Assembly (NCBI GenBank): GCA_910578605.1 | Contig: CAJTQG010000007.1 | Location: forward strand, 1,577-65,576 | DNA: 64,000 nucleotides | Reading direction: 5' to 3' | Origin: an uncultured Lachnospiraceae bacterium | Lineage (GTDB): Bacteria > Bacillota > Clostridia > Lachnospirales > Lachnospiraceae | Shown: one piece after another, positions 20,211 to 52,644 of the stretch | Numbering within the stretch: position 1 is the stretch's first letter | How the letters are laid out: each line of letters starts with the position of its first letter | Program-made: the position numbers and the translations under genes | The notes under the pieces: model-generated | The model's database searches: none | Told to the model about the DNA's origin: nothing | Seen by the model: only the letters and a program-made list of their open reading frames with translations

Positions 20211-21560
20211 TTAATATTTTCCAAAATCATCTCCCAATGAAATCACTGGTTCGCTTGAACCGGATGCAGAAGATGGAGAATAGGATGATGTATTATGGTA
20301 TGTGGAACCGCCATTGCTTGTTCCCAAATTGTAAATGGAGAGCATCTCTCTCATTCTAGAAGCCTGGTTGGACAGTTCTTCGCTGGCTGCCGCACATTGT
20401 TCGCTTGTAGCAGAATTGCTCTGAACTACTTGTGAAACTTGTGCAATGGCCTGCTCAATCTGTGATACTGCGGTTGCCTGATAATTAGAGGATTCCGCAA
20501 TGCCATTGATAATTACTTCACTCTCCTGTACTCTGTTTGTAATGGCTTCTAAAGCATGTGCTGTATTATCTACAATCTTAGAACCAGAACCAACCTTTTC
20601 AATAGAATCCTCAATCAATTCTGTTGTCTCTGCTGCTGCAGATGCACTTCTAGCTGCAAGGCTTCTAACCTCCTCTGCCACTACGGCAAAGCCTTTTCCT
20701 GCCTCACCTGCTCTGGCAGCCTCAACTGCTGCATTTAAAGCAAGAATATTTGTCTGGAATGCAATATCATCAATTACTTTAATAATCTTTGAAATACTGT
20801 CAGATGACTTGTTGATATCCTGCATAGCCTTCATCATATCCTGCATCTGCTGATTTCCCATCTTTACGTCATCAATTACTTTAACTACAAGGTTTGCAGC
20901 AGAATTTGCCTGCTCTGCATTCTGTTTTGTCTTCTCTGCAATCTCGTCGATAGATGCGGTAATCTCCTGAATAGCGCTTGCCTGCTCAGTAGAGCCCTGA
21001 GCCAAAGCCTGGCTGGCACTTGCCACCTGTGAAGAGCTGATTGTAACTTGTGAACCTGCATCACTGATATTTGTCAGCGCATTTAAGTTGTCATCCACTA
21101 ATTTCTTTAAGGAATTGCCCAACACATCATCTGCAGACTTTGGAACTACTGTGATAGTCAGATTACCGTTTGACACCTCTTCCGCAATCTTTGCCTGATA
21201 CTTAATGTTGTCAATTACCTTGTTGTACTCATCTACCAAATCACCAAACTCATCATTATTATACTTTACCAAGTCAATGTCTACCTGACCCATAGCAATG
21301 CGCTTTGCAGCATCTGATAACTGAATAACAGCCCTCTCAATTGCCTTGATTAAAAGCACTGCCATCACAATTGTAATGACAGAGCACACTACCATCAATA
21401 CAATTGTAAAAATAGTTGAATTTACTAAATATCTTTCTTGATCTTCTGCCTTCAGTGCGCCTTTTGTTGTGGAATTGCCAAGCAGCACATTGATAATCAT
21501 CAGTAAAATAGGAACCGCAAATCCTATAATCATCTTCGTTTTCATCTTCATGTCTCTCAT
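20211..21560 (-). CDS. methyl-accepting chemotaxis protein
   Basis: TM segments, a HAMP domain, and the MCP signalling domain ([31 protein letters not shown]). Confidence 0.85.
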
Positions 21561-21572
21561 AAATCATACCTC

Positions 21573-22118
21573 TCATTCTTCTATATTACTATCACCTTTC
21601 TGCTCCATTGCAGCAAGCTCCTCGTCATTTAACAACTTATCTGGATCTAACAGCAATTTTACAGAATCACCAACCTTGCCAATACCATATACATATTTGT
21701 TCTGCTGCGATTTTTCACCACGTTTCATAGTAGGAGGCGGCAAAATATCTTCTTCCTGAATCTCAATTACCTCTGCAATTTTTTCCACAATCAGTCCTAC
21801 AACTGTAGATTTTACATCAATAACAATAATACAGGTTCTGTCATTATACTCAAATGGCTCCTGTTTAAAACGCAGACACACATCAATTACAGGAATAACC
21901 TTACCTCTCAGATTAATCAAGCCTTTCATGTAGTCTTCAGTATCAGGAATAGCTGTAATTGCTTGATATTGAATAATCTCACTTACATATTCAATTTTTA
22001 ACCCAAAATATTCATCTCCTGATTTGAATGTCATGTACTTCTCTTTTTGCACATCCTGCTCACCTGAAGATTCCATTTCGTCGTCTGTCTGCTGTAATAA
22101 TTCGATTGTTTCCTCCAT
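21573..22118 (-). CDS. cheW: chemotaxis coupling protein CheW
   Basis: 181 aa CheW-like domain (YMTFKSGDEYFGLKIEYVSEII…LINLRGKVIPVIDV). Confidence 0.85.
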   Translation of the reverse strand: MEETIELLQQTDDEMESSGEQDVQKEKYMTFKSGDEYFGLKIEYVSEIIQYQAITAIPDTEDYMKGLINLRGKVIPVIDVCLRFKQEPFEYNDRTCIIVIDVKSTVVGLIVEKIAEVIEIQEEDILPPPTMKRGEKSQQNKYVYGIGKVGDSVKLLLDPDKLLNDEELAAMEQKGDSNIEE

Positions 22119-22144
22119 ACGCTATACCGTTCCTTTCTATCTGT

Positions 22145-24283
22145 TTAATCAATTAATCCAGCGGCATCTAATATTAAGGCAATACTGCCATCCCCAAGCT
22201 GTGTACATCCTGATAAGCCTTTTACCTTCTTCACATAAGAAGGAATCGGTTTTACAACAATCTCCTGCTCTCCAATCAGTCTGTCAACAAAAAGACAAAT
22301 CTTCTTGTCTTCCACTTCCAGAATCAGCATAATACCATCCTCCACTGATTCCTTATAATCATTCAGACCATACCATTGGCCCAATCTAAGTACAGGGAAA
22401 CATTCTCCGCGGATCATAATATATTCATCTCCGTTTGGCTCATGAATCATCATATCTTCCTTCACGCTGATAAAGGACTGAATCACACCTGTTTCCAATA
22501 CAAAGGAGGAATTTCCTGTCTCCATCACAATACCATCAATAATTGCCAGCGTTAAAGGAATCTTTAAGTTCATTATGCTGCCGCAACCCGGGGTACTCTC
22601 AATGTCCAGCATACCGCCGATTGCCTGAATATTCTGGACAACTACGTCCATTCCTACGCCTCTTCCTGAATACTCTGTAATCTGTTCATTCGTAGAAAAT
22701 CCAGGTAAGGTAATAAATTGATATACTTCCTTGTCTGTGTAAGCAGATTCCGGTTTGCTCTCATCCAATATTCCCTGCTTCTTTGCCTTGGCAAGAATCT
22801 TCTCCCTGTCAAGTCCTGTTCCGTTATCCTCCACACTAATCCAAACCTTGCCTGCCTCAGTTCTAGCAGAGAGAACCACCTTACCTTTTTCTCTCTTGCC
22901 GCTAGCAGCACGCTCTTCATTTGTTTCAATACCATGATCAACAGCATTACGAACCAAATGCATAAGCGGATCGGAAATATGTTCAATAATATTCTTATCC
23001 ACCTCTGTCTGTTCCCCAACCATCTCAAATTCAATGTCCTTGCCCAATTTTCTGGACACATCAAAAACAATACGGTTCATTTTCTGGAACGTATTTGTCA
23101 AAGGAACCATTCTCATGGACATAATAACATTTTGTAAGTCAGTGGATATTTTTGATAACTGAGCAGCCGCTTTGTTAAAGCTGTTTAAGTTCAGTCCCGG
23201 AACCTTTAAATCCGGATTCTGCAGAACAACCGACTCAGCGATAACCAATTCTCCAATTAAATCCATTAACTGATCCATTTTTGTGACATTCACGCTGATA
23301 AAGGAAGCTTTTTCTGCCTTTGGCTTATCTCTTGCCAGCTTTTTCTGCTTACCTGGCTCTTTGGATTTAATCACAAAATCACCAGGGGCTATTTTCTTTT
23401 CGCCTGCTTCCTTGTTCTCTTTATTGTCCTGATCAGAGGCCTCACTGGCTTTTTCCTCTGTCTCTACATTACTTGCTGCTGCTGGAGCATCCTCATTTTC
23501 TCCATTGAAATCAAAGCCCTGAAGGAACTCCTCCGCCTTACACTCATAAACATCTACCTTATCAATTACATAGCTTTCTCCAATTATCTTGCGTACCTCT
23601 TCCTCATTGCACTGTGCCTGCAAAAGAATCTTAAAGCCCTCATCCACAATTACCTGTGCATTTGACTCATCCGAAATAATATCCTCGGGATAGTACAATA
23701 AATCCTCCGCAATCTCCTTTAATGCATACACCACTTTATAGGCATGCACGTTAGCCATTTCCGTCTCTGGGAAAAAGCTGATATAAATTTTATAAAAGCG
23801 GCTGGCGCTGGTGGCAACAGGCGCAATATAAAATTGCTTCGGCTCCTCATGCACATTCTCCGGCTGCTCTTCACCACCCTTAATCTTATCTAGAAACTTA
23901 TCCAGACCTTTAATCAATTTTTTCGGGTCACCGTCTACCGGATCGCCGTTGCGAATCTTCTCCATCTCATTTGATATAAAATCCTCTACCTCCAACACAT
24001 GCTCCACCAATTCCATATGCGGCACATTATCAGGTTGGGATTCCCTCAAAAAATAAAAGACATCTTCCAGCTTATGGGATATAGCCGTTATGTTATCGAA
24101 CATCATAATACCTGATGAACCTTTAATTGTGTGCATTGTTCTAAAGATTTCATTGATGCTGTCTTCGTCAAAGCAGTCAGCATCCTTCTGCTCCAAAACC
24201 ATTTCCTGAAGCTGTTCAAGTAATTGCTCGTTCTCAAACAAATATATATCTAGCATGTCTTCTGTATTAAATCCTTCAGCCAT
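22145..24283 (-). CDS. cheA: chemotaxis histidine kinase CheA
   Basis: P1 Hpt (HTIKGSSG), a dimerisation domain, HATPase motifs (DNGTGLD, GRGVGMDVV), and a C-terminal CheW-like P5 domain. Confidence 0.9.
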   Translation of the reverse strand: MAEGFNTEDMLDIYLFENEQLLEQLQEMVLEQKDADCFDEDSINEIFRTMHTIKGSSGIMMFDNITAISHKLEDVFYFLRESQPDNVPHMELVEHVLEVEDFISNEMEKIRNGDPVDGDPKKLIKGLDKFLDKIKGGEEQPENVHEEPKQFYIAPVATSASRFYKIYISFFPETEMANVHAYKVVYALKEIAEDLLYYPEDIISDESNAQVIVDEGFKILLQAQCNEEEVRKIIGESYVIDKVDVYECKAEEFLQGFDFNGENEDAPAAASNVETEEKASEASDQDNKENKEAGEKKIAPGDFVIKSKEPGKQKKLARDKPKAEKASFISVNVTKMDQLMDLIGELVIAESVVLQNPDLKVPGLNLNSFNKAAAQLSKISTDLQNVIMSMRMVPLTNTFQKMNRIVFDVSRKLGKDIEFEMVGEQTEVDKNIIEHISDPLMHLVRNAVDHGIETNEERAASGKREKGKVVLSARTEAGKVWISVEDNGTGLDREKILAKAKKQGILDESKPESAYTDKEVYQFITLPGFSTNEQITEYSGRGVGMDVVVQNIQAIGGMLDIESTPGCGSIMNLKIPLTLAIIDGIVMETGNSSFVLETGVIQSFISVKEDMMIHEPNGDEYIMIRGECFPVLRLGQWYGLNDYKESVEDGIMLILEVEDKKICLFVDRLIGEQEIVVKPIPSYVKKVKGLSGCTQLGDGSIALILDAAGLID

Positions 24284-24319
24284 ATCATTCTCCTTTCCTG
24301 CATATTGTTCAATCTTTTG

Positions 24320-24712
24320 TTATATCAATTGCAGTTTCTTCAATGCTTGCTCAAACTTATCCTGGTCAATCGGTTTGCCGGAATAAATAGTACATCCCAG
24401 CTCAAATGCCATCTTCACATTTTTTTCCTCATTGAGAGCAGTTGTCATAATTACCTTTACTGCCTTATCCTCAGGAATATTTCTATCCTTTTCTAAGTTG
24501 CGGATACCTACCAGTGCCTGATATCCATCCATGACCGGCATCATAATATCAAGACATACCAGGTCGTAAGGTTCTTCATCTTCCAAAGCCATCATAAATG
24601 CGTCCACTGCTTCCATTCCGTCCACAGTAACATCACATTCGCCATACTTTGACAAGAAATTTACCATAAATTTTCTTGTTGCAAAATCATCTTCTGCTAA
24701 TAGAATCTTCAT
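24320..24712 (-). CDS. cheY: CheY-like single-domain response regulator
   Basis: 130 aa receiver domain with the phospho-acceptor context LDIMMPVMDG. Confidence 0.85.
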   Translation of the reverse strand: MKILLAEDDFATRKFMVNFLSKYGECDVTVDGMEAVDAFMMALEDEEPYDLVCLDIMMPVMDGYQALVGIRNLEKDRNIPEDKAVKVIMTTALNEEKNVKMAFELGCTIYSGKPIDQDKFEQALKKLQLI

Positions 24713-24726
24713 ACATTTGATCTCCT

Positions 24727-25755
24727 TTACATTTTATTTAATAATGCGTATGTTCTCTTTGCAATATCGGACAATTTCTCCTGATATTCCACCGCACCAA
24801 GGTCATAAGCCACCTTCGGCATACCATACACGACACAGGTAGATTCATCCTGTCCTATGGTTCTGGCCCCTGCCTTTCTCATTGCCAGAAGCCCCTTTCC
24901 TCCATCTCCTCCCATTCCCGTAAGAATAATTCCTACTGCATCTGAACCTGCCGCCTTGGCAACAGAGTGAAATAATACATCCACCGAAGGACAATGTCCA
25001 TTTACCTTGCCCTCCTTCCTGCATTCCACCTGATACCCTCCATTCACCTTTACAAGATGCATTTGAGTATCTCCTCCTGGTGCTAAAAGCAGTTCTCCTG
25101 GCATCACTCTATCTCCGGTTTTTGCCTCCTTTGCCTTAATTCGGCATTGGTCATTGAGCCTCTTGGCATACATGGCTGTAAAGCCTGCCGGCATATGCTG
25201 CACCACAACAATCCCTGGTACATCCGGCCCAAATCGCTTAACCACATCAAAGATTGCCTCTGTTCCTCCTGTTGATGCGCCAATGGCAATCAGCAAATTC
25301 TTTTTGTTTTCCAGCACATGCTGATTTTCCTGCAGCATAGTAGAATTTTTAATGTTGCCGACTTTTGCAGCAGAGGCAATTTTAATCTTTACCAGCAGTT
25401 CATTTTTTATGAAATCCTCCAACTGCCCCCTGCTTGATATAGCAGGCTTTGCCACAAAATCAACCGCCCCTGCATTTAAGGCGTCAAACACCTTGTCGCT
25501 GAGAGCGCTGATGACCACTACAGGAAGTGGATATTGAGGCATCAGCTTACGCAGAAATTCAATTCCATTCATTCTTGGAAGCTCCACATCCAATGTCATT
25601 ACATCCGGCTTATATTGTACAATGGCATCTCTTGCCTCAAAAGGATCTTTGGCTGTGGCTACAACCTGTATCGAAGGATCTTTATTAAGATTTTGAACCA
25701 ACAATTCCCGAAACACAATGGAATCTTCCACAACCAGCACCCTGATTGTCTTCAT
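24727..25755 (-). CDS. cheB: protein-glutamate methylesterase CheB (REC plus methylesterase)
   Basis: N-terminal receiver domain and a C-terminal CheB methylesterase domain (GASTGGTEA…, HMPAGFT). Confidence 0.9.
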   Translation of the reverse strand: MKTIRVLVVEDSIVFRELLVQNLNKDPSIQVVATAKDPFEARDAIVQYKPDVMTLDVELPRMNGIEFLRKLMPQYPLPVVVISALSDKVFDALNAGAVDFVAKPAISSRGQLEDFIKNELLVKIKIASAAKVGNIKNSTMLQENQHVLENKKNLLIAIGASTGGTEAIFDVVKRFGPDVPGIVVVQHMPAGFTAMYAKRLNDQCRIKAKEAKTGDRVMPGELLLAPGGDTQMHLVKVNGGYQVECRKEGKVNGHCPSVDVLFHSVAKAAGSDAVGIILTGMGGDGGKGLLAMRKAGARTIGQDESTCVVYGMPKVAYDLGAVEYQEKLSDIAKRTYALLNKM

Positions 25756-25774
25756 ATTTTATCATTCCCTTCCT

Positions 25775-26581
25775 TTATTTCCTGAATATTGACGGTTGAA
25801 TAATCTGAAACGGGGTACTGCCTCTGTCAAGTGTCTCGGTTGTTCCTATAAACAGATAACCACCAGGCTCTAAGTAATCATACACCTTTTGAACCAGCTC
25901 TCGTTTTGTCTTATCATCAAAGTATATCATAACATTTCTCAAAAATATTGTATGCATTTTTCTCCTAAACGGAAAATCATCCATCAAGTTAAACTGGCGA
26001 AAAAGAACTTCTTTTTTTAATTTTTCTTTCACTCTATACTGTTTTCCCCCAGCCATTTTATCAAAAAACCGCTTTAACCATTGCTCCGGAACACTTTTAA
26101 GCTGGTCTGCATTGTAAATGCCTAAGGTTGCCTTCTGAAGCACCTGAGTAGATATATCGGTTGCCAGAACCTTTGTATCCCACTGGTCATGCTCCATGCC
26201 AAAGAAATCCATTAAAACCATAGCAATCATATATGGCTCTTCCCCCGAAGAGGCAGCGCCACACCAGATTCTCAAGTCCTTTTTTGCGCTTTCCCTTTTC
26301 TTCAACTCCGGCAGCACCACTTTCTTAAAATATTCCAAATGTTCAAATTCTCTCATAAAAAAAGTATGATTTGTCGTTAGCTGATTCACCAGCATTCTCT
26401 CCAACTCACCGGTGGTATCCTGCTCCATCGCATCCATGTAGGCATTGAAGTCCTTCCAGTGTCCTGCCTTAATGCGATTTTCCAATCGGCCGTTTACAAT
26501 TACTTTCTTTTCACTTAAGTCAATACCATATTTTCTTTTCATATAAACTGATATTCTCAAAAATTCTTCATCGGTTATCAC
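25775..26581 (-). CDS. cheR: chemotaxis protein methyltransferase CheR
   Basis: CheR N-terminal domain plus a SAM-dependent methyltransferase domain (TTNHTFFMRE…RIWCGAASSGEEPY). Confidence 0.85.
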   Translation of the reverse strand: MITDEEFLRISVYMKRKYGIDLSEKKVIVNGRLENRIKAGHWKDFNAYMDAMEQDTTGELERMLVNQLTTNHTFFMREFEHLEYFKKVVLPELKKRESAKKDLRIWCGAASSGEEPYMIAMVLMDFFGMEHDQWDTKVLATDISTQVLQKATLGIYNADQLKSVPEQWLKRFFDKMAGGKQYRVKEKLKKEVLFRQFNLMDDFPFRRKMHTIFLRNVMIYFDDKTKRELVQKVYDYLEPGGYLFIGTTETLDRGSTPFQIIQPSIFRK

Positions 26582-26622: not shown

Positions 26623-27684
26623 TCAGCTTAATTGACGTGATATTTTACAGCAAATTTCAAAAATATCGGGATTTAACATGACACCTGCATACTCTCTCAT
26701 ACTCTCAAGTGTCTGTTCCCTATCCCTTCCACTCTCCTCTCTCATGCTGCCATACAGCTCCGCAACAGAGACAATCTGTGCTGCAAGAGGAATCTCCTCT
26801 CCCTTTAGACCAGACGGATAGCCGCTTCCGTCCCATTTTTCATGATGATGCTGCACAATATCAATAGAGGTACTTATAAAATCATTATAATCATTGCTGG
26901 CATTCAAGTCCTTTAATATTTTTGCACCAATACTAGTATGACCTTGAACGATTTCCAATTCCTTGTCACTTAGAACCTTACCTTCCTGGAGAAGCTCTTT
27001 GGGTACCCCTATATTTCCAATATCACACAGGGGGGCCGCCAACTCTATTGTATCCACAAAAGTATCGGAAACCTTACCCTCAAACAGAGGTGACAGCTGC
27101 ATTCCTTGCGCTAATATTTTGCAATTGTGTCCTAGCCGCCTCAAATGTTCTTTTTTATTATCCGAATCCTGCACTGCTATATTCGCCAAAGCATACAATA
27201 TATTCTTTTTTTCCTGTTCCATCTGTTTAAGCTGTTCCGTGACGGAAATCTGAAGACGCCGGTTCGTTTGCATCAAATCCCTCTTCGCTTCATGAAGGCG
27301 AAGGTGAACACCAACACGAGCCTTTACCACCTCAGAAATAAAGGGCTTCGTAATATAATCCTCGCCTCCGATAAAAAAACCTTCCACTATATCTTCCGGA
27401 TTATCATATGCGGAAATAAAGACTACAGGAATATTTTTTGTTTCTTCCTTGCCCTTAAGAATTTTGCAAAGCTCATATCCATCCATTCCCGGCATAGATA
27501 TGTCCGTCAAAATCAACTGGGGGCAACAGTCCTTCAACATCTCTAGCGCTTGTTCCCCGCTCTCTGCCAAAATAGGACAATAACCCATATTTTTTATGAT
27601 TTCCTCCAAAACCAGACGGTTGGTTTCCACATCGTCTATAATCAAAATATTTTCATTATGGTTCATCTGCTCCTCATAAAGCAT
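26623..27684 (-). CDS. response regulator with HD-GYP c-di-GMP phosphodiesterase domain
   Basis: Receiver domain (LTDISMPGMDG) plus HD-GYP (HHEKWDGSGYP). Confidence 0.85.
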   Translation of the reverse strand: MLYEEQMNHNENILIIDDVETNRLVLEEIIKNMGYCPILAESGEQALEMLKDCCPQLILTDISMPGMDGYELCKILKGKEETKNIPVVFISAYDNPEDIVEGFFIGGEDYITKPFISEVVKARVGVHLRLHEAKRDLMQTNRRLQISVTEQLKQMEQEKKNILYALANIAVQDSDNKKEHLRRLGHNCKILAQGMQLSPLFEGKVSDTFVDTIELAAPLCDIGNIGVPKELLQEGKVLSDKELEIVQGHTSIGAKILKDLNASNDYNDFISTSIDIVQHHHEKWDGSGYPSGLKGEEIPLAAQIVSVAELYGSMREESGRDREQTLESMREYAGVMLNPDIFEICCKISRQLS

Positions 27685-29305: not shown

Positions 29306-30397
29306 TTACGAAAAACTAAACATCTTAATCACTTCAACAATGTTAAAGAAATCTTCCTTTGCCAATGCGAAGCACTCAAGCACATCCGGTGAAAATTGTC
29401 CACACTCGCCTTTCATAATCATATCATATGCTATATCGTTAGCATATGCACTTTTGTATACTCTTGGACTAACCAATGCATCATAAACATCTGCAATAGC
29501 AACAATCTGAGCGCTGATTGGGATTTCATCTCCCACCAGATGATCTGGATAACCGTTTCCATCCCATCTCTCATGATGGTGCCGGCATATATCATAACAA
29601 TAACGATAAAATTCATCATCCTGATGCTCTTGGAACTTTTCTAATATTTCACATCCAAGTGTTGTATGAGTCTTCATCGTCTCAAACTCTTCCTCTGTCA
29701 GGCGTCCCGGCTTCAACAAAATGGCATCCGGTATTCCAATTTTACCCACATCATGAAGAGCTGCCGCTCTGGCTATCTCATCTACCTGAACATCTGTCAA
29801 ACCATACTTAGGGAAATACTTCACAAGATACTTTAACATAATTCTTGTAAAATATTTAATCCTCTTAATGTGATCTCCAGTTTCTAGATTTCTAAATTCT
29901 ACTACAGAGCTGAGAGCGTCAATCATAAATTCATTATTCTCACGAATCTTCTTCTCCTGCTCTCTGATTTCCTGTTCCTGCTCTTTTAATCGAATCTCCA
30001 TATTGCGCTTATTTTGATAAAGCTCCATAATATTTCTGCTTCTCTTGCGCACAATATGCGGATAGAAAGGCTTATGTATTACATCCGCCACCCCATACTT
30101 ATATGCCTTTTCCTCACTGTCTAAAACTGTCTCTCCAGTGACAATGATTACTGGAATCTTCTCCAGCAAATCGTGTTCTTTCATATACTCCAACACTTGA
30201 AAGCCATCAACAATAGGCATTACAATATCCAACAATATCAGTGCAATATCAGGATTATTCTCAATGCAAGAAATTGCTTCCTGACCATCTGCTGCCTCCA
30301 GCGTTTCAAACTTATCCTGAAATGCCACGTTGAGCACTGCACGATTGATGTCTTCATCATCCACAATTAATATGTACTGCTTATCCATTGCCATCAC
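29306..30397 (-). CDS. response regulator with HD-GYP c-di-GMP phosphodiesterase domain
   Basis: Receiver domain (LLDIVMPIVDG) plus HD-GYP (HHERWDGNGYP). It is the first gene of the operon. Confidence 0.85.
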   Translation of the reverse strand: MMAMDKQYILIVDDEDINRAVLNVAFQDKFETLEAADGQEAISCIENNPDIALILLDIVMPIVDGFQVLEYMKEHDLLEKIPVIIVTGETVLDSEEKAYKYGVADVIHKPFYPHIVRKRSRNIMELYQNKRNMEIRLKEQEQEIREQEKKIRENNEFMIDALSSVVEFRNLETGDHIKRIKYFTRIMLKYLVKYFPKYGLTDVQVDEIARAAALHDVGKIGIPDAILLKPGRLTEEEFETMKTHTTLGCEILEKFQEHQDDEFYRYCYDICRHHHERWDGNGYPDHLVGDEIPISAQIVAIADVYDALVSPRVYKSAYANDIAYDMIMKGECGQFSPDVLECFALAKEDFFNIVEVIKMFSFS

Positions 30398-33191: not shown

Positions 33192-34433
33192 TTATCCCTT
33201 TACAACGCCAACCGTTTTCAGCTTGCGTATGGGGGTAACCAAATCTTTTTGCTGCTCCATTACCATATCTATATCCTTGTAGGCAAATCTACATTCCTCT
33301 GCCACGTCATTTTTCTTATGCTTTCCTAGTACAATTCCCTGCTCCTTCAAATCCACCATCACCTGCTCTGTTGTAAACGCAGCCATGGCGCCGCTTCTTG
33401 AGTAATTTCTTCCTGCTCCGTGAGAGGATGTGCAGAAGGTTTCAGGATTCCCCTTACCCTTCACCACATAGCTGTAGGAGCCCATAGCGCCTGGAATCAC
33501 AGCCAACTCCCCTTCTCTTACTCTTGTGGCACCCTTGCGGTGCACCCACACATTTTCCCCATAGTGATTTTCTATGGCGGCGTAATTGTGATGGCAATTG
33601 ATTTCACTGTTAAATTCTACAGTAATGTCCGTAAACTTTTCAATTTGCGTTTTTACCACATCACACACTGCCTCCAGCATACTTGCTCTGTTCTCAAAAG
33701 CATAATCCATTGCCAACTGCATCCAATTCACATATTGCCTTCCCTGGGGCATATTGATTGGCAGGAATGCCAATCTGTAAGTTTCCGGCACACTGCTGTA
33801 CCAAATGTTATTTAACTCTCTTGCCATTTTATGAAAGTAATCACAGATTTCCTTACCTAGGTGGCGGCTTCCCGAATGAATCATAATACATAAATAACCA
33901 TCCTCATCCTCCTGCAATTCGATAAAATGATTGCCCCCGCCAAGAGTACCTACTTGATAATAGCCCTCGTCAATCAAATGAAGAAGCTCCTGATTTGTCT
34001 CATACTTATCCATTTCCTTCTTTGCCAGGTCTAGGACTTTAGACACCTGAGGCTGCTTATGCTTCATAGTGCCAACAGGAACCGCCCGCATAATGGCGCC
34101 TACAATGGACTGAATCATCGTTCCGTTTCCTGTCTGAATATCTTTGATTTCCTCTACCTTCACATTGGTTGCGGCAAAAACCATTCCGCATCCAATATCC
34201 ACTCCAACCGCATTGGGAATAATGACATCCTTAGCGGCGATTACACCGCCGATTGGCATTCCCTTTCCTGCGTGGGTATCCGGCATTAAACATACCCATT
34301 TATGTATAAAGGGAAGATTTGCTAAATGGTACGCCTGTTCTAGACAATTTTCTTCCAAATCACTTTTTTCCTTCAACCACACCTTCACCGGAAATTTTGT
34401 ATTTTCATCATATAAAACAAACATCACATCCAC
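33192..34433 (-). CDS. rtcB: RNA-splicing ligase RtcB
   Basis: PDTHAGKG, GGGNHF, HNYA and SSHGAGR metal-binding and active-site motifs; 413 aa. Confidence 0.85.
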   Translation of the reverse strand: MDVMFVLYDENTKFPVKVWLKEKSDLEENCLEQAYHLANLPFIHKWVCLMPDTHAGKGMPIGGVIAAKDVIIPNAVGVDIGCGMVFAATNVKVEEIKDIQTGNGTMIQSIVGAIMRAVPVGTMKHKQPQVSKVLDLAKKEMDKYETNQELLHLIDEGYYQVGTLGGGNHFIELQEDEDGYLCIMIHSGSRHLGKEICDYFHKMARELNNIWYSSVPETYRLAFLPINMPQGRQYVNWMQLAMDYAFENRASMLEAVCDVVKTQIEKFTDITVEFNSEINCHHNYAAIENHYGENVWVHRKGATRVREGELAVIPGAMGSYSYVVKGKGNPETFCTSSHGAGRNYSRSGAMAAFTTEQVMVDLKEQGIVLGKHKKNDVAEECRFAYKDIDMVMEQQKDLVTPIRKLKTVGVVKG

Positions 34434-34454: not shown

Positions 34455-34560
34455 TTTAAATGTTTGCGAAACTCCTTCGAAAAAGTTCATAATTGTGCAA
34501 AATTTACAATTTTTGTTAGATGCAATTCGGTTTGTGTTTTAGAAGTTCTTAGTGTTCTTT
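34455..34560. repeat. ~110 bp repeat (copy A), shared with 50715-50830, containing palindrome AATTGTgcaaaatttACAATT
   Basis: aaaagttcataattgtgc[a/g]aaatttacaattt…ttagatgc…gttcttagt[g/a]ttcttt is conserved between the two loci. Both copies lie just 5' of minus-strand gene starts. Confidence 0.5.
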
Positions 34561-34701
34561 ACTTAACATAGCAATATTTGCACACGAGGGGCAAATAAGA
34601 TGACAATTGAGCCATGGAGGGCGAATTGGCATCGGTTGCGTGCTCTTCCAATCAATATGATAAGAACACTTAGTACTTCTTAGACACAATTAGATGCATC
34701 T
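34518..34701. mobile_element. MITE-like element / IS terminal inverted repeat remnant
   Basis: Imperfect ~42 bp inverted repeats (ttagatgca…taagaagt.cttagtgttctt) flank a ~100 bp core with no ORF. Confidence 0.35.
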
Positions 34702-35101
34702 AATGAAATTAGTAAATTTGTACAATACAAAACTAAAAATAATGAGTTTCGCAATTACCTATATTTATATTTTTAAGTTTGTTGATTTTGTTATATTTGT
34801 TTTTTATTTTTATTTGCTTTTTTGTTTTTGTTACATTAACGTTATCCGCTTTATGAATTTTATGAATTAATTCTAATTGATGTGTTTTCTTATGTATGCA
34901 TTATATGGCATCATCTGGAAAATATCATTTCAAAAAAGTTGCGAACTCTTATCTTTGCAAATTTATTTTAATTTAGGATACAATGTTAAAACTTCAAAGT
35001 TTTGAAAGATATGAGTGCTACAATATACTAGAACATTTCTTTTATTTATGATACTCTATATAATGATTTTTAATCTCTTTAAAATAGAAAGGAACACTGC
35101 C

Positions 35102-36376
35102 ATGTCCGAATTTAAAGAATTGGTCAAAAGTTTTGCTAAATCAAGAGAATATGTTCGTGATTTTTTTGTATATGGTTTTAAAACAAGAGAAGATTTTAAC
35201 AGGAAAAGCACACGAACCTATGACAACGAGCGACGCCGAATTGAATGCTGGCTTCAAGGCTTTGTAAAACAAGACTACACTAAAAAAGGAAAAAATATTT
35301 CCCTGGCCATAGACAGCAACCTGCTTGACACAAACCCTCTGTTTCGTGTCTGGAAAACGAAAAGCTTTACTGATAATGATTTGATATTGCACTTTACCCT
35401 TCTTGATTATCTAGCCCAAAACCCCTGCTGCAGTGCGGAAATGCTGACAGATGCACTGAACCTAAAATATAACCTTCTCTTTGATGTGCAGACTGTGCGC
35501 CGCAAATGCAACGCATATGTAAAGGAAGGTATTTTTATTAAGACAAAGCAAGGTAAAGAAATAAAGTATTCTGCCGCCAAAGATTTTACTCCTCTATTTC
35601 ACCGCTATCCCGCTTTCAGGCAGGCAATTACTTTTTATCAACTAGCCGAACCACTGGGTATTATAGGAAATACTATTATGGATAACTTCTCTATGGATAA
35701 CTTTTCCTTTCGGGTAAAGCACAGCTTTTTTGTTCACACCTTAGAGGATGAAGTTTTGTTGGAACTGCTGCATGCTATGCATTCTAAAGAAAGCATTTCC
35801 TTGGAGCTTTGCAGCACGAAGAACCAAAACAAAAGCACCCGCACTTGTATTCCCCTGCAGATATTTACAAGCACCCGCACAGGCAGACGTTTTTTGTGTG
35901 CATATCAGCCCAAATCCAAACGTTTTAACTGTATCCGCATAGATTCCATCAAAAACGTAACTCCCCTCCCCCCTGACTCACAGGAAAACAAAGATTTTTC
36001 ACGATTATGGGACGAACACCAAAGTAATCTCATAAAAAACCATCCTTATATATGGGGCGTTTCCTTTCAAAATACAGACAAAACTCACCTTCAACATGTA
36101 AAACTTACTCTTCGCATCAGGGAACCGGAGGAACATTATATAATGGAGCGATTAATAAGGGAGGGCAAAGATGGCATTATCACCTGCATTGCCCCCAATA
36201 CATACACCTACGAAAAAGATATTTTTGATGCCAATGAAATGCTGCCATGGCTTCGCACATTCATAGGCAGAATTGTGAATTTTACTTGCAGCTCCCCTGT
36301 GGTGGAGAGACGATTCTTTCAGGATTTACAAAAAATGTATGATATGTATGATATTAAAAATGCATTTAGGGACTAA
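35102..36376 (+). CDS. WYL-domain transcriptional regulator (wHTH plus WYL plus WCX-like C-terminus)
   Basis: A wHTH-like region (LLDYLAQNPCCSAEMLTDALNLKYNLLFDVQTVRRKCNAYVKEGI) precedes a WYL-like core (RTGRRFLCAYQPKSKRFNCIRIDSI). RBS AAAGGA lies before the ATG at 35102. Confidence 0.5.
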   Translation: MSEFKELVKSFAKSREYVRDFFVYGFKTREDFNRKSTRTYDNERRRIECWLQGFVKQDYTKKGKNISLAIDSNLLDTNPLFRVWKTKSFTDNDLILHFTLLDYLAQNPCCSAEMLTDALNLKYNLLFDVQTVRRKCNAYVKEGIFIKTKQGKEIKYSAAKDFTPLFHRYPAFRQAITFYQLAEPLGIIGNTIMDNFSMDNFSFRVKHSFFVHTLEDEVLLELLHAMHSKESISLELCSTKNQNKSTRTCIPLQIFTSTRTGRRFLCAYQPKSKRFNCIRIDSIKNVTPLPPDSQENKDFSRLWDEHQSNLIKNHPYIWGVSFQNTDKTHLQHVKLTLRIREPEEHYIMERLIREGKDGIITCIAPNTYTYEKDIFDANEMLPWLRTFIGRIVNFTCSSPVVERRFFQDLQKMYDMYDIKNAFRD

Positions 36377-48854: not shown

Positions 48855-49193
48855 TTAAATATAATACCAGTATATTACTCCTAAAATAATACATACTGCT
48901 ATTGGTAAATAGCAAAACAATATATTATTCCACATTATCCTGTTTGCTTCAATAATTTTCATATCTTGACTTAACAATTTGCCTAATCCTACATTAATAA
49001 GATATACTAAAAATATCCAAAACATCAACATTACCACTCCAATCCATCGAAGACCTTCTCCCTCTGGATTATAATAATGAGGACCTTTCAATGTATTTTG
49101 TATAACTAATGTGGAAAATAACAAATAACGTGCTGAAATATAACCTATTAATATATTTAAAAAACAAAAAATCAATTTTTTTCCAACTTTCAT
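48855..49193 (-). CDS. small hydrophobic membrane protein
   Basis: 112 aa with three or four predicted TM helices. Confidence 0.4.
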   Translation of the reverse strand: MKVGKKLIFCFLNILIGYISARYLLFSTLVIQNTLKGPHYYNPEGEGLRWIGVVMLMFWIFLVYLINVGLGKLLSQDMKIIEANRIMWNNILFCYLPIAVCIILGVIYWYYI

Positions 49194-49204: not shown

Positions 49205-50683
49205 CTAATTATTATATTGTTTAAAAATTTTGAAATACTCATAGCAATCTTCCCCATAGCTATCTTCTCCATTATACTTTGCCATAATTTTCTTTAAACT
49301 ACTTACTTTAGCTTTATTTATATTTGATATTCCCAGTTTACATGCCTCATATTTAAGCACATATGCAACAAAGCGAACATTATAAATATTATTATCTTTC
49401 AAAGCAAACCACATTTTTCTTCTCGATTTCCAATCCTGATAGTCATATTTTTGTCCGCCTATTATCCTTCTGATATACAGATAGTTATTTGTAAGAATAG
49501 CAGTTTTAGCAAAAATTTGTCCTAGTCCTGTACTGCTATCCTTTCGCATTGGAACAGGCACAGCTGGTGGAGTCATTAATATTTGTTGATGCCAACTTTT
49601 GTTCATATATATTTCTAATTGTGCTTTATACGCATAATAATTTGTAACTGCTCCATCTGCTATATCATCTAACAAGTTTACGCATGCTAATTCTCTAAAT
49701 AAAACTGATTGAACCATCTCTTTTGGCAAATTTAATATTTTCGCAACATTAGTAATAATTGCATCATATTGTAACACTATATCCACACATTTTTTTGTTG
49801 TCCTCTTTGCAAAATTTTTCTTTTTAGGAAATCTTTTAGCAAATTCTTTATCTAATTTACTGATTAACTGTCCTTTTGACAGCCTGTTTTTATTGGTTGC
49901 CTTTAGCATTGGATAAAATTCCAACTCCATGCCTTCCTCTACTTCCTCTATTTTAATACTTTCCTCACTTTCATCTTCTTCTGGTTCATCTATTGCCTCT
50001 TCTTCTATTATCATATCATGTATGGCAATTTGATACAATTTTACCACACTAATAGTCTTTATGCTTTCTAAACTAATTGTACATTGTCCCTTTGTATCAA
50101 TATTTGCATTATAGCCCAAATTTTTTATTGTATATGTATTGTTATCCTTTTGAACAATCTCTCCTCCCTCCAAAATTCTAACAGAATCTTCTGATTCAAA
50201 GTTCATTATCCAATCTTCCAATGTACTTTCCGAGCAATTGGTTATCACTATCTTATTATCACTTATTTTATACTGAAATTCCGACTCAGGCACCTCCTGC
50301 ACTGCCATCACAAAGTTAATTGTCTGTGGAACATCAAAATCTCCCTTTGCAATCAATCCAATCTCTACCGTTTCTCCTGGCATAATATCCTGATTATAAC
50401 CTGCATTTTTTATGCAATATACTCCATCTGCCAATTTTTCTTCCTCAGCGTTCCATATATTGAGTATTTCTGTCTTCATATTCACACAGAATGCCCAATT
50501 CTCAATGGAATATTTTCCTGTATTGGTAATTGACATCTGTATCTGCTGCTTGTCCTCCCAGCAGCTCACCACTACTGCATTGAACTCATAGCACAAACCA
50601 TCCTCCTGATTCTTTCCATATACAATACATGCATTCAATAAAAATAACAATAAAACAACTAACATTCTCGCTTTCTTCTTCAT
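49205..50683 (-). CDS. secreted protein with tandem N-terminal beta-rich repeats and a possible lysozyme-like (SLT-type) C-terminal domain
   Basis: Signal peptide MKKKARMLVVLLLFLLNACIVYG. Two ~100 aa repeats are present (…NTGKYSIENW… / …IKNLGYNANI…). The C-terminal region has ELACVN…DSSTGLGQIFAKTA, reminiscent of the SLT motif. RBS lies before the ATG at 50683. Confidence 0.5.
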   Translation of the reverse strand: MKKKARMLVVLLLFLLNACIVYGKNQEDGLCYEFNAVVVSCWEDKQQIQMSITNTGKYSIENWAFCVNMKTEILNIWNAEEEKLADGVYCIKNAGYNQDIMPGETVEIGLIAKGDFDVPQTINFVMAVQEVPESEFQYKISDNKIVITNCSESTLEDWIMNFESEDSVRILEGGEIVQKDNNTYTIKNLGYNANIDTKGQCTISLESIKTISVVKLYQIAIHDMIIEEEAIDEPEEDESEESIKIEEVEEGMELEFYPMLKATNKNRLSKGQLISKLDKEFAKRFPKKKNFAKRTTKKCVDIVLQYDAIITNVAKILNLPKEMVQSVLFRELACVNLLDDIADGAVTNYYAYKAQLEIYMNKSWHQQILMTPPAVPVPMRKDSSTGLGQIFAKTAILTNNYLYIRRIIGGQKYDYQDWKSRRKMWFALKDNNIYNVRFVAYVLKYEACKLGISNINKAKVSSLKKIMAKYNGEDSYGEDCYEYFKIFKQYNN

Positions 50684-50714
50684 GGCTCTTCTTTCCTTTC
50701 CCTGTTTCTTTGTT

Positions 50715-50830
50715 ATTAGGCATTGCAAAACACATTCAAAAAGTTCATAATTGTGCGAAATTTACAATTTACATCAGATGCGATAGGATTTGTGATTTAG
50801 ATGTTCTTAGTATTCTTTATTGTATAAGGC
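50715..50830. repeat. ~110 bp repeat (copy B) in the 5' UTR/promoter of the secreted protein gene
   Basis: Homologous to 34455-34560, including the AATTGTGCgAAATTTACAATT palindrome and one TIR-like arm. Confidence 0.5.
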
Positions 50831-50845
50831 AAAATTTACTATACA

Positions 50846-50958
50846 AATAAAAAAGGCTGCAAGAATATAGAAATTCCTGCAACCGAACTATCCTAGGTTA
50901 ATATCCCCCTTAGACTCCCAGCTTTGCGTCCATGCATTTCTGTCATGTTTGCCTTTAG
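50846..50958 (-). promoter_or_regulatory. c-di-GMP-I (GEMM) riboswitch-like leader, copy 3, with intrinsic terminator
   Basis: Minus strand: AAAGGCAAACAUGACAGAAAUGCAUGGACGCAAAGCUGGGAGUCUAAGG…GGUUGCAGGAAUUUCUAUAUUCUUGCAGCC UUUUUU. The hairpin covaries relative to copies 1 and 2. Confidence 0.6.
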
Positions 50959-51300
50959 ATTTTTGTATAGAACAGAACACGCTATTTAATGTTAACATTA
51001 CCCCTCTTTTATGTCAACTACTATTGGCACAATTTGTCAAATATTGTTAACAGTCCAGCCTAGGTCTTTGCATCAATTCATACTTCCACTGAACCATTAC
51101 AAATTCCTGTTACTATTCTCAAAATAATTTGCTTTATCCCTTGCCTTTTCTTTCCATTAGATGTATACTTTGTTCGTTTAAATCTATTGTTTTATATTTG
51201 TTTATATGTAACGATTCAGAACCATGCAGATTTATACAAAACCAACAGTTCCATATTGTTGTTTGTGTTTATCAATACATTGAAGGAGGAACCTCTTCCC

Positions 51301-52644
51301 ATGTTACAGAAGCTTTTTCGCAACGTAAGTCAAACACGGCTGATCGCTCTTAGCTTTGCCCTTGTTATATTGACCGGAGCCCTGCTGTTATGCCTTCCCA
51401 TATCATGCAGACAGGGGGAATGGACTGATTTTACGGACGCTCTGTTCACAGCCACCAGTGCCACATGTGTAACTGGTTTAATTGTGTTTGACACATACAC
51501 ACACTGGTCTCTCTTTGGACAGCTTGTCATTTTATTGATGATACAAATTGGGGGTATTGGCCTTATGTCCATTATCACCATGTTTTTTATATTTATGAAA
51601 AAGAAAATCGGCCTTCACGAGCGCATGCTTCTGATGCAGTCCGCAGGAACTATGCGTGTCAGCGGCGTTATCCGCCTTATCAAGAAAATTTTTCTAGGAA
51701 CATTAATTATTGAAGGAATTGGAGCTATTCTTTTGGCATTTCGCTTTATTCCCATGCTTGGAATCCCAATGGGAATCTATTATTCCATATTTCACTCTAT
51801 CTCTGCCTTTTGTAATGCAGGTTTTGATTTAATGGGATATTTTGAGCCTTTCTCCTCCCTCACAAGTTTTCAAACCGACTGGTATTTTAACATCATTATT
51901 ATGCTTCTGATTATTATTGGCGGAATCGGCTTTCTTGTGTGGATGGACATTGTGAAATTCAAGTTTTCCTTTTCAAAATTTCAGCTTCACTCCAAAATTG
52001 TACTGATTACCACTGCCATATTGCTTGCCGCCGGTTTTATTGGCTTCCTGTTTTTGGAACAGCAATATACTTTAAAAGGTATGTCCCCGGGAAACCAAAT
52101 TCTGTCGTCTCTTTTTATGTCGGTGACAACAAGGACTGCCGGCTACAATACAATAGACTTGAATGCACTTTCCCCTTCCTCAAGCCTGCTGTCTGTAATA
52201 TTAATGGCTATCGGCGGAAGTCCCGGCTCCACAGCAGGAGGAATCAAAACCTCCACTGTCGCCTTAATTTTTTTGACTATGGCATCCCTGACAAAGGGGG
52301 ACAATGAGGTTACATTTTTTAAGAAGCGTCTGGAAAATCGTTTGATAAAACAAGCTGCTATTATTATCATGGTATACGGCGCAGGCATATTATTATCCAC
52401 TATACTGATATGCCATATAGAACAAGCAAGCATGACGAATGTATTGTTTGAGACATCCTCAGCCATTGGGACGGTAGGCCTTACCCAGGGCTTGACGCCT
52501 ACCTTAAGTCTATTTTCCAGACTTTTGTTAATTATCATGATGTTTGGCGGGCGTATCGGTGCCGTTTCTCTGCTTCTTGTTTTCCGTGAGCACGAAAAAC
52601 AAGCTCCTACAAGCAGACCAACAGAAAAAATATTAATAGGATAG
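51301..52644 (+). CDS. Trk/Ktr potassium uptake protein, membrane subunit (TrkH/KtrB family)
   Basis: Polytopic protein with repeated M-P-M selectivity-filter-like glycine motifs (GLTQGLT). RBS GAAGGAGG lies before the ATG at 51301. Confidence 0.8.
   Translation: MLQKLFRNVSQTRLIALSFALVILTGALLLCLPISCRQGEWTDFTDALFTATSATCVTGLIVFDTYTHWSLFGQLVILLMIQIGGIGLMSIITMFFIFMKKKIGLHERMLLMQSAGTMRVSGVIRLIKKIFLGTLIIEGIGAILLAFRFIPMLGIPMGIYYSIFHSISAFCNAGFDLMGYFEPFSSLTSFQTDWYFNIIIMLLIIIGGIGFLVWMDIVKFKFSFSKFQLHSKIVLITTAILLAAGFIGFLFLEQQYTLKGMSPGNQILSSLFMSVTTRTAGYNTIDLNALSPSSSLLSVILMAIGGSPGSTAGGIKTSTVALIFLTMASLTKGDNEVTFFKKRLENRLIKQAAIIIMVYGAGILLSTILICHIEQASMTNVLFETSSAIGTVGLTQGLTPTLSLFSRLLLIIMMFGGRIGAVSLLLVFREHEKQAPTSRPTEKILIG

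Follow-up and report, generated by a model that had tools for sequence, protein, structure and literature searches.

The founding members of the class-I riboswitches for cyclic di-GMP (c-di-GMP), also termed GEMM-I, are the Vibrio cholerae elements Vc2 and Vc1, the latter of which positively regulates the secreted polysaccharide-binding protein GbpA (PMC6140456, PMC4744006). In the binding pocket, one guanine of the ligand is recognised by G20 at its Hoogsteen edge, and the other is held by C92 in a Watson-Crick pair. Relatives selective for 3',3'-cyclic GMP-AMP (cGAMP) carry A at position 20, and the affinity of the wild-type G20 RNA for cGAMP is lower by about a million-fold (PMC6140456). 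G20, A47 and C92 have been listed together with a universally conserved interhelical C-G pair (PMC4744006). In Bacillus thuringiensis, the terminator of the riboswitches Bc3, Bc4 and Bc5 overlaps the binding-site C, the P1 region and part of P3, and these three elements as well as Bc2 switch transcription ON with c-di-GMP both in vitro and in vivo (PMC4759541, PMC4933901). The present work deals with a comparable RNA in a stretch of 64,000 nucleotides from an uncultured Lachnospiraceae bacterium (contig CAJTQG010000007.1; the whole stretch is referred to as the window), namely the third of its GEMM-I copies, which lies on the minus strand ahead of the gene 49205..50683. Taken as a whole, copy 3 is likely to be a class-I c-di-GMP ON riboswitch situated in the leader at the 5' end of an operon of two genes, whose products would be a muramidase and a small membrane protein.

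A class-I aptamer that shares nucleotides with its terminator

Scanning of the whole window with Rfam cmscan gave three matches to the GEMM-I family RF01051, located at 3495-3591 (copy 1, 70.5 bits), 3807-3910 (copy 2, 48.5 bits) and 50875-50963 (copy 3, 61.9 bits), all of which lie above the gathering score of 35, in agreement with the expectation of the initial annotation that all three copies would align to the GEMM-I model. The match of copy 3 (E = 1e-9) extends over the full length of the model (positions 1-87), and no other Rfam family was found at E <= 1 within 50600-51320. The aptamer and terminator motifs read earlier on the minus strand are therefore present, and the region at 50846-50958 had been placed correctly, although the Rfam match starts 5 nt upstream of 50958.

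The aptamer of copy 3 (50875..50963, minus strand) is defined by this match together with a covariance model built without it, and it forms an 89-nt structured region downstream of the promoter. According to the Rfam alignment, it is constructed of a P2 hairpin at 50947-50931, capped by a GAAA loop at 50940-50937, and of P3 at 50923-50881. In Vc2 numbering, the key positions fall at 50953 (G20), 50928 (C44), 50925 (A47), 50888 (G83) and 50879 (C92), and these ligand-contacting and fold-holding nucleotides, as well as the GAAA tetraloop, are canonical throughout. Copy 3 thus has a P2 capped by a GNRA tetraloop, together with the C44-G83 pair between the helices and a receptor region in P3, features from which the tertiary contact itself is predicted; the receptor strand reads UAGGA where the consensus is UAUGA, and UAGGA is also found in the related locus L037. 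Copy 3 is, by all these nucleotides, a canonical class-I riboswitch, which would be expected to bind c-di-GMP, and the G at position 20 argues for this ligand and against cGAMP.

The fold was further examined with a covariance model termed R1, which was built from ten other aptamers, that is, copies 1 and 2 of the window and eight Firmicutes loci, with copy 3 omitted. The Firmicutes loci were found by a DNA pattern scan of genome contigs, whose generic form returned mostly unrelated phyla and about 20 usable Firmicutes loci. Copy 3 scored 72.5 bits against R1. In an alignment of 33 sequences, canonical pairs occupy 95.8% of the cells and double changes occur at 16 of the 22 pairs, values that none of 500 column shuffles matched; when the 3' partners were slid by 1-3 columns as a control, pairing amounted to only 26-45%. 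The compensatory changes in the helix that had been pointed out by the initial annotation proved real, as P2 reads CAUG-a-CA / UG-CAUG in copy 3 versus CCUAUG / UGUGGG in copy 1, and the two-hairpin fold of P2 and P3 is backed by covariation.

Upstream of the aptamer, a consensus scan located a sigma-70-type promoter-like site (50989..51017, minus strand) with 10 of 12 consensus matches, which comprises the previously noticed -35 hexamer TTGACA (51017-51012), a 17-nt spacer, an extended -10 TG (50997-50996) and the -10 hexamer TAACAT (50994-50989), and from which a transcription start near 50982 is predicted. The leader segment 50982-50971 was considered as an anti-aptamer strand for P2 (-8.5 vs -3.1 kcal/mol), a candidate that was discarded as chance since 46% of shuffled leaders pair equally well.

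At the other end, a terminator scan identified an intrinsic terminator (50849..50884, minus strand; one found vs 0.2 expected in shuffles), which consists of a stem-loop at 50884-50855 and six uridines at 50854-50849. The stem-loop, GGUUGCAGGAAU-UUCUAU-AUUCUUGCAGCC, has 12 bp, five of which are G-C pairs, and is followed by UUUUUU. Rather than lying 3' of the aptamer, the terminator starts inside it: the 5' arm corresponds to G87-U98 and is made up of the P3 positions G87-U90, G91, C92 and the 3' tail. No separate antiterminator segment was found between the aptamer and the terminator, which abuts the aptamer directly. The full hairpin was calculated at -16.6 kcal/mol, and when the aptamer pairs were enforced with G20, A47 and C92 kept free, a 6-bp A/U-rich remnant of -2.2 kcal/mol was left.

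The terminator is succeeded by a 165-nt leader (50684..50848, minus strand) that runs to the start codon and holds a purine-rich ribosome-binding site, GGAAAGGAAAG, just 5' of the ATG; a consensus scan revealed no additional promoter-like site on the minus strand of this leader. The earlier figure of about 125 nt between the RNA and the gene needs correcting, as the start codon at 50683 lies 165 nt past the U-tract. The order along the single strand is consequently promoter, aptamer, overlapping terminator, 165-nt leader and ATG.

Direction of switching

As C92 and the end of P3 are located inside the 5' arm of the terminator, the ligand-bound pocket and the terminator would be mutually exclusive, and such a direct overlap predicts an ON switch. 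On the basis of the sequence overlap, of the folding analysis and of the equivalent layout in the experimentally ON riboswitches Bc3-5, transcriptional activation by the ligand is considered quite probable. In the proposed mechanism, transcription would begin near 50982 from the TTGACA/TAACAT promoter, and without ligand the nascent RNA would fold into the 12-bp terminator at 50884-50855, so that the polymerase would stop at the U-tract and release a transcript of about 134 nt. Bound c-di-GMP would pair with C92 and G20, stack on A47 and, along with the tetraloop contact between P2 and P3, lock P3, which would withhold the first six nucleotides of the 5' arm of the terminator. Only the 6-bp A/U-rich remnant would then be left, the polymerase would read through, and the two-gene operon would be switched on at high c-di-GMP.

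The same expression platform, GGYUGCAGGA-loop-UCUUGCAGYC-U5+, is common to ten other loci, namely copies 1 and 2 of the window and eight Lachnospiraceae/Clostridia loci outside it (L037, L047, L054, where it is found twice, L088, L093, L103, L105 and L115). One position belongs to both P3 and the terminator; U-G, C-G and U-A pairs all occur there, with both helices remaining paired. A pattern specific for this platform gave a single match in metagenome contigs, which was GC-rich and unrelated.

Several observations weigh against the ON switch and its assignment to this operon. The unconstrained nearest-neighbour energies favour the terminator state (-35.5 vs -18.7 kcal/mol, about 17 kcal/mol), by a model that leaves out ligand energy, tertiary energy and co-transcriptional kinetics; switching would therefore require kinetic control as well as the energy contributed by the ligand and by tertiary contacts. 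Two pairs in the distal P3 stem are non-canonical, a search by eye through the three copies and the related loci found no Watson-Crick P1 closing helix in a common register, and the transcription start is a predicted one. In addition, the pairing of riboswitch and gene was seen only in the lineage of the window and in a close relative (loci L001-L006), the contigs of the nearest full-length orthologues (P0001, P0003 and P0005) ending before the upstream region, and no riboswitch was found upstream of the distant domain homologues P0007, P0010, P0013 and P0016. In that sister lineage, the riboswitch is intact with one U-to-C change at U89, and the gene has lost 148 bp between two direct repeats of 9 bp, which shifts its reading frame; the repeats (AGATTGGAT) fall within the two CBM2 modules of the gene, at 50208-50216 and 50356-50364 of the window (minus strand), and the deletion site is at about 2990-3005 in L001. 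A protein-based scan of genome contigs for orthologues of the regulated protein returned none.

These points bear on three other explanations of the RNA. The opposite sign, in which c-di-GMP would stabilise the aptamer and favour the terminator, as in the Cd1 element upstream of flgB in Clostridioides difficile, would place copy 3 among the many clostridial class-I c-di-GMP riboswitches that have been reported as OFF switches. The unconstrained minimum-free-energy fold of a short construct lends it some weight, for it contains a 9-bp terminator alongside P2 and the greater part of P3, which means that the aptamer helices alone do not exclude a shortened terminator. An OFF switch, however, needs an antiterminator that is disrupted by the bound aptamer, and the missing segment described above leaves none for this role; C92, which is needed to pair with the ligand, sits within the terminator stem, and the equivalent overlap in Bc3-5 works experimentally in the ON direction, so that an OFF switch is regarded as improbable. 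A decaying relic, whose aptamer would no longer regulate and whose terminator would merely silence a gene on its way to being lost, is less credible still. The frameshift in L001-L006 speaks for it, as does the cluster of the regulated protein (90% identity), which holds many fragments (51, 109, 234 and 256 aa) across many contigs. Decay is nevertheless hard to reconcile with contact nucleotides and a tetraloop that are all intact, with a bit score far above the threshold, with an open reading frame (ORF) that is full length in the window, and with the fact that the sole substitution in the sister strains, U89 to C, improves the pairing of both P3 and the terminator.

The least probable of these explanations, to which hardly any weight is given, is that the RNA responds to cGAMP, as a GEMM-Ib element, or to a variant cyclic dinucleotide instead of c-di-GMP. 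GEMM-I relatives of altered specificity do exist in the Rfam clan CL00126, and a related tandem copy in L054 has A at position 20; yet copy 3 carries G where the cGAMP-selective members carry A (PMC6140456), and RF01051 is its top-scoring family within that clan. The preferred account of copy 3 accordingly remains that of a c-di-GMP-responsive ON switch.

The regulated gene and its C-terminal domain

The gene behind the riboswitch (49205..50683, minus strand) encodes a protein of 492 aa that comprises a signal peptide, two CBM_2 modules (residues about 37-215), an acidic linker and a C-terminal domain resembling GH23 enzymes and lysozymes (residues about 270-492). Judged from the sequence only, the N-terminus is a typical Sec signal peptide; a lipoprotein reading of the motif LNAC was rejected, as its Cys is not conserved in the orthologues. 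The two CBM_2 modules were recognised by Pfam (E = 2.2e-17) and gave weak sequence matches in the PDB to the carbohydrate-binding modules of a chitinase and a cellulase.

The C-terminal domain itself (residues 270-492, 223 aa; 49208-49876, minus strand), which was delimited by its fold model and motifs, matched no Pfam (including SLT), NCBIfam or PHROG entry at E <= 0.01, and there was no PDB sequence match in that part. The AlphaFold2 model of the domain is confident (predicted local distance difference test score, pLDDT, 94.9) and displays a lysozyme-like alpha-helical fold. Residue Glu331 of the protein, which is E62 in domain numbering, the motif DSSTGLGQIFAKTA and a YNG motif are invariant in ten homologues and resemble GH23 motifs (catalytic Glu, GLxQ and YNxG), whereby Glu331 becomes, by motif resemblance, a candidate counterpart of the catalytic Glu of GH23.

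A HMMER scan showed that 288 representative clusters (50% identity) carry the domain, nearly always at the extreme C-terminus of proteins ranging from 180 to 2783 aa. In P0184, it occupies the toxin position behind a beta-helix, DUF6531 and 19 RHS repeats, while in P0070 it is fused to Peptidase_M23 and Amidase_3; its further partners include CBM_2, TSP3 and VWA (many), LRR and RicinB, and other homologues adjoin a holin or sit inside conjugative elements. The same C-terminal domain is therefore borne by many different N-terminal trafficking or binding regions, Rhs among them, as is characteristic of polymorphic toxins. These partners and neighbours, together with the GH23-like fold and motifs, point to peptidoglycan as the most likely substrate, and chitin-like glycans may be another. 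The early suggestion that the gene product is possibly cell-wall-lytic thus gains backing at the level of fold and motifs and from partners such as Peptidase_M23 and Amidase_3, and an enzymatic activity of the domain is presumed.

A separate observation concerns a distant homologue (TSP3, VWA and the GH23-like domain) in L130 (1-5808), which lies within a cluster of GH11 xylanase, CBM_2 and polysaccharide deacetylase genes; this context is a hint that plant-fibre surfaces are the target or the site of action of the CBM2-tagged members.

The stop codon of the regulated gene is separated by 11 nt from the start of an ORF for a membrane protein of 112 aa (48855..49193, minus strand), and the two genes are presumably co-transcribed. 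This protein had no match in Pfam, PHROG or NCBIfam, and a PDB sequence search was also empty. Homologues stand directly downstream of the GH23-like gene in L001 (3997-4341, 43% identity), L009 (1500-1877, 37%) and L130 (5470-5808, 30%), so that in four loci a homologous membrane protein of 112-125 aa (30-43% identity) follows the GH23-like gene even where the N-terminal architecture differs, while more distant members of the domain family have different or very short neighbour genes. From its position and conservation, the membrane protein is a candidate immunity or accessory partner.

What the muramidase would be used for is finely balanced. The chances are judged even that it is not an antibacterial effector at all, and that it acts instead on the wall of its own producer, in remodelling or as an autolysin, or works as a GH23-type chitinase or glycanase tethered to dietary fibre through CBM2. 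Against such a role stand the C-terminal toxin position of the domain in the Rhs protein P0184, its fusion to the peptidoglycan hydrolase domains of P0070, its occurrence near a holin and in conjugative elements, and the small conserved membrane partner with which it travels.

Other c-di-GMP elements and known systems

Copies 1 and 2 (minus strand) form tandem GEMM-I units, with copy 2 upstream of copy 1. Each of them is complete, its aptamer being preceded by a promoter-like site and overlapped by a terminator, and copy 2 begins 13 nt past the stop codon that ends a 348-aa gene (3923-4969). Copy 1 is followed by an Rhs/YD-repeat gene that runs on the minus strand from 3387 past the start of the window and encodes more than 1129 aa, including a signal peptide, TSP3 and YD repeats. 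Its RHS repeat-associated core domain (TIGR03696) was detected at residues 940-1023 (E = 1.2e-19), and the gene product is a polymorphic toxin of the Rhs type; its C-terminus falls outside the window. The small regulon of secreted effectors that had been envisaged for the three copies is accordingly borne out for copy 1, which precedes this signal-peptide protein, but copy 2 is a tandem unit upstream of copy 1 and adds no member of its own. Outside the window, the expression platform of copy 3 is also found in riboswitches ahead of further surface or secreted proteins: a homologue of the N-terminal region of the Rhs protein in L037, a surface protein with two CBM2 modules in L103, and LPXTG-type wall proteins in L105 and L115.

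Another observation on the related loci is that a GEMM-I element in L054 (5386-5488, minus strand), with a similar one in L047 (1527-1629, minus strand), has A for G at position 20 (UUAGCAAAC), a change associated with cGAMP or dual specificity. The element in L054 is the upstream member of a GEMM-I pair in a Lachnospiraceae metagenome-assembled genome (MAG) and precedes a small gene of 111-202 aa.

The closest relatives of the riboswitch come from Lachnospiraceae MAGs, and the organism of the window has SpoIIE and chemotaxis genes and a GC content of 38.5%. Adjoining the chemotaxis gene cluster (about 20211-26581), two proteins that combine a response regulator with an HD_5 (HD-GYP-type) domain (26623-27684 and 29306-30397, both on the minus strand) flank a histidine kinase. 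They are candidate c-di-GMP phosphodiesterases and would be consistent with c-di-GMP turnover in the organism; no GGDEF motif was seen in the ORFs of the window. Elsewhere in the window, a full-length TwoAYGGAY RNA (RF01731, 97.7 bits; 34527-34694, plus strand) sits between rtcB (33192-34433, minus strand) and an unannotated ORF of 453 aa (35015-36376, plus strand).

A more far-reaching proposal is that c-di-GMP ON riboswitches directly gate a set of interbacterial weapons in a gut-type, spore-forming Clostridia lineage: copies 1 and 2 would control the Rhs toxin, and copy 3 a Tse3-like muramidase that is anchored to fibres and paired with a membrane immunity protein. Release of these antibacterial effectors would then be confined to the state in which cells are attached to surfaces and high in c-di-GMP. 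This proposal is put forward as a doubtful one, and among the papers searched none linked c-di-GMP riboswitches to Rhs or polymorphic toxins.

The RNA as such adds nothing new, given that its aptamer class, contact nucleotides and terminator-overlap ON design have already been described and that it is routinely detectable with databases. The cargo is of more interest than the RNA, and a possible connection of c-di-GMP to antibacterial effectors is the only novel angle. The riboswitch directs attention to a family of lysozyme-like C-terminal domains, about 288 clusters in size, that is uncharacterised and lacks a Pfam model, and also to a neighbouring Rhs toxin gene; c-di-GMP signalling would have both as its outputs in this uncultured gut anaerobe. 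If this is true, a 134-nt RNA with one small-molecule ligand would offer a simple and testable way into the question of when effectors that degrade cell walls are put to use by Gram-positive commensals.

Among the known systems, Bc3, Bc4, Bc5 and Bc2 of B. thuringiensis resemble copy 3 in that an intrinsic terminator comes immediately after a class-I aptamer and takes its 5' arm from part of P3, the C of the binding site and the 3' tail (P1). The Bc riboswitches likewise occur as complete units in tandem with secreted or surface cargo, although here the tandem arrangement belongs to copies 1 and 2 while copy 3 is single; the cargo is a collagen adhesin in B. thuringiensis and a CBM2-GH23-like enzyme in the Clostridia-like MAG, for which the ON direction is predicted. 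Vc2 and Vc1 of V. cholerae share with copy 3 the aptamer architecture, G20, A47, C92, the C44-G83 pair and, as predicted for copy 3, the tetraloop-receptor contact, but they have no overlapping intrinsic terminator of this type and employ different expression platforms.

The Cd1 element of C. difficile (flgB) is another Firmicutes class-I aptamer that acts through transcription termination; it terminates when the ligand is bound, whereas the terminator of copy 3 shares nucleotides with the binding pocket, for which the opposite sign is predicted. In the adenine riboswitch of Bacillus subtilis pbuE (ydhL), the 5' arm of the terminator is derived from 3' strands of the aptamer and the ligand blocks termination, a logic like the ON logic proposed for copy 3, despite an unrelated aptamer fold and a different ligand. 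As for the cargo, the GH23-like domain has an identity of only 11-20% to Tse3 of Pseudomonas aeruginosa, GH23 lytic transglycosylases and goose-type lysozymes, with no Pfam SLT match. Tse3 belongs to a type VI secretion system, whereas the protein described here is predicted to be exported by the Sec route in a Gram-positive-type organism, and its membrane partner is unrelated to Tsi3, the immunity protein of Tse3.
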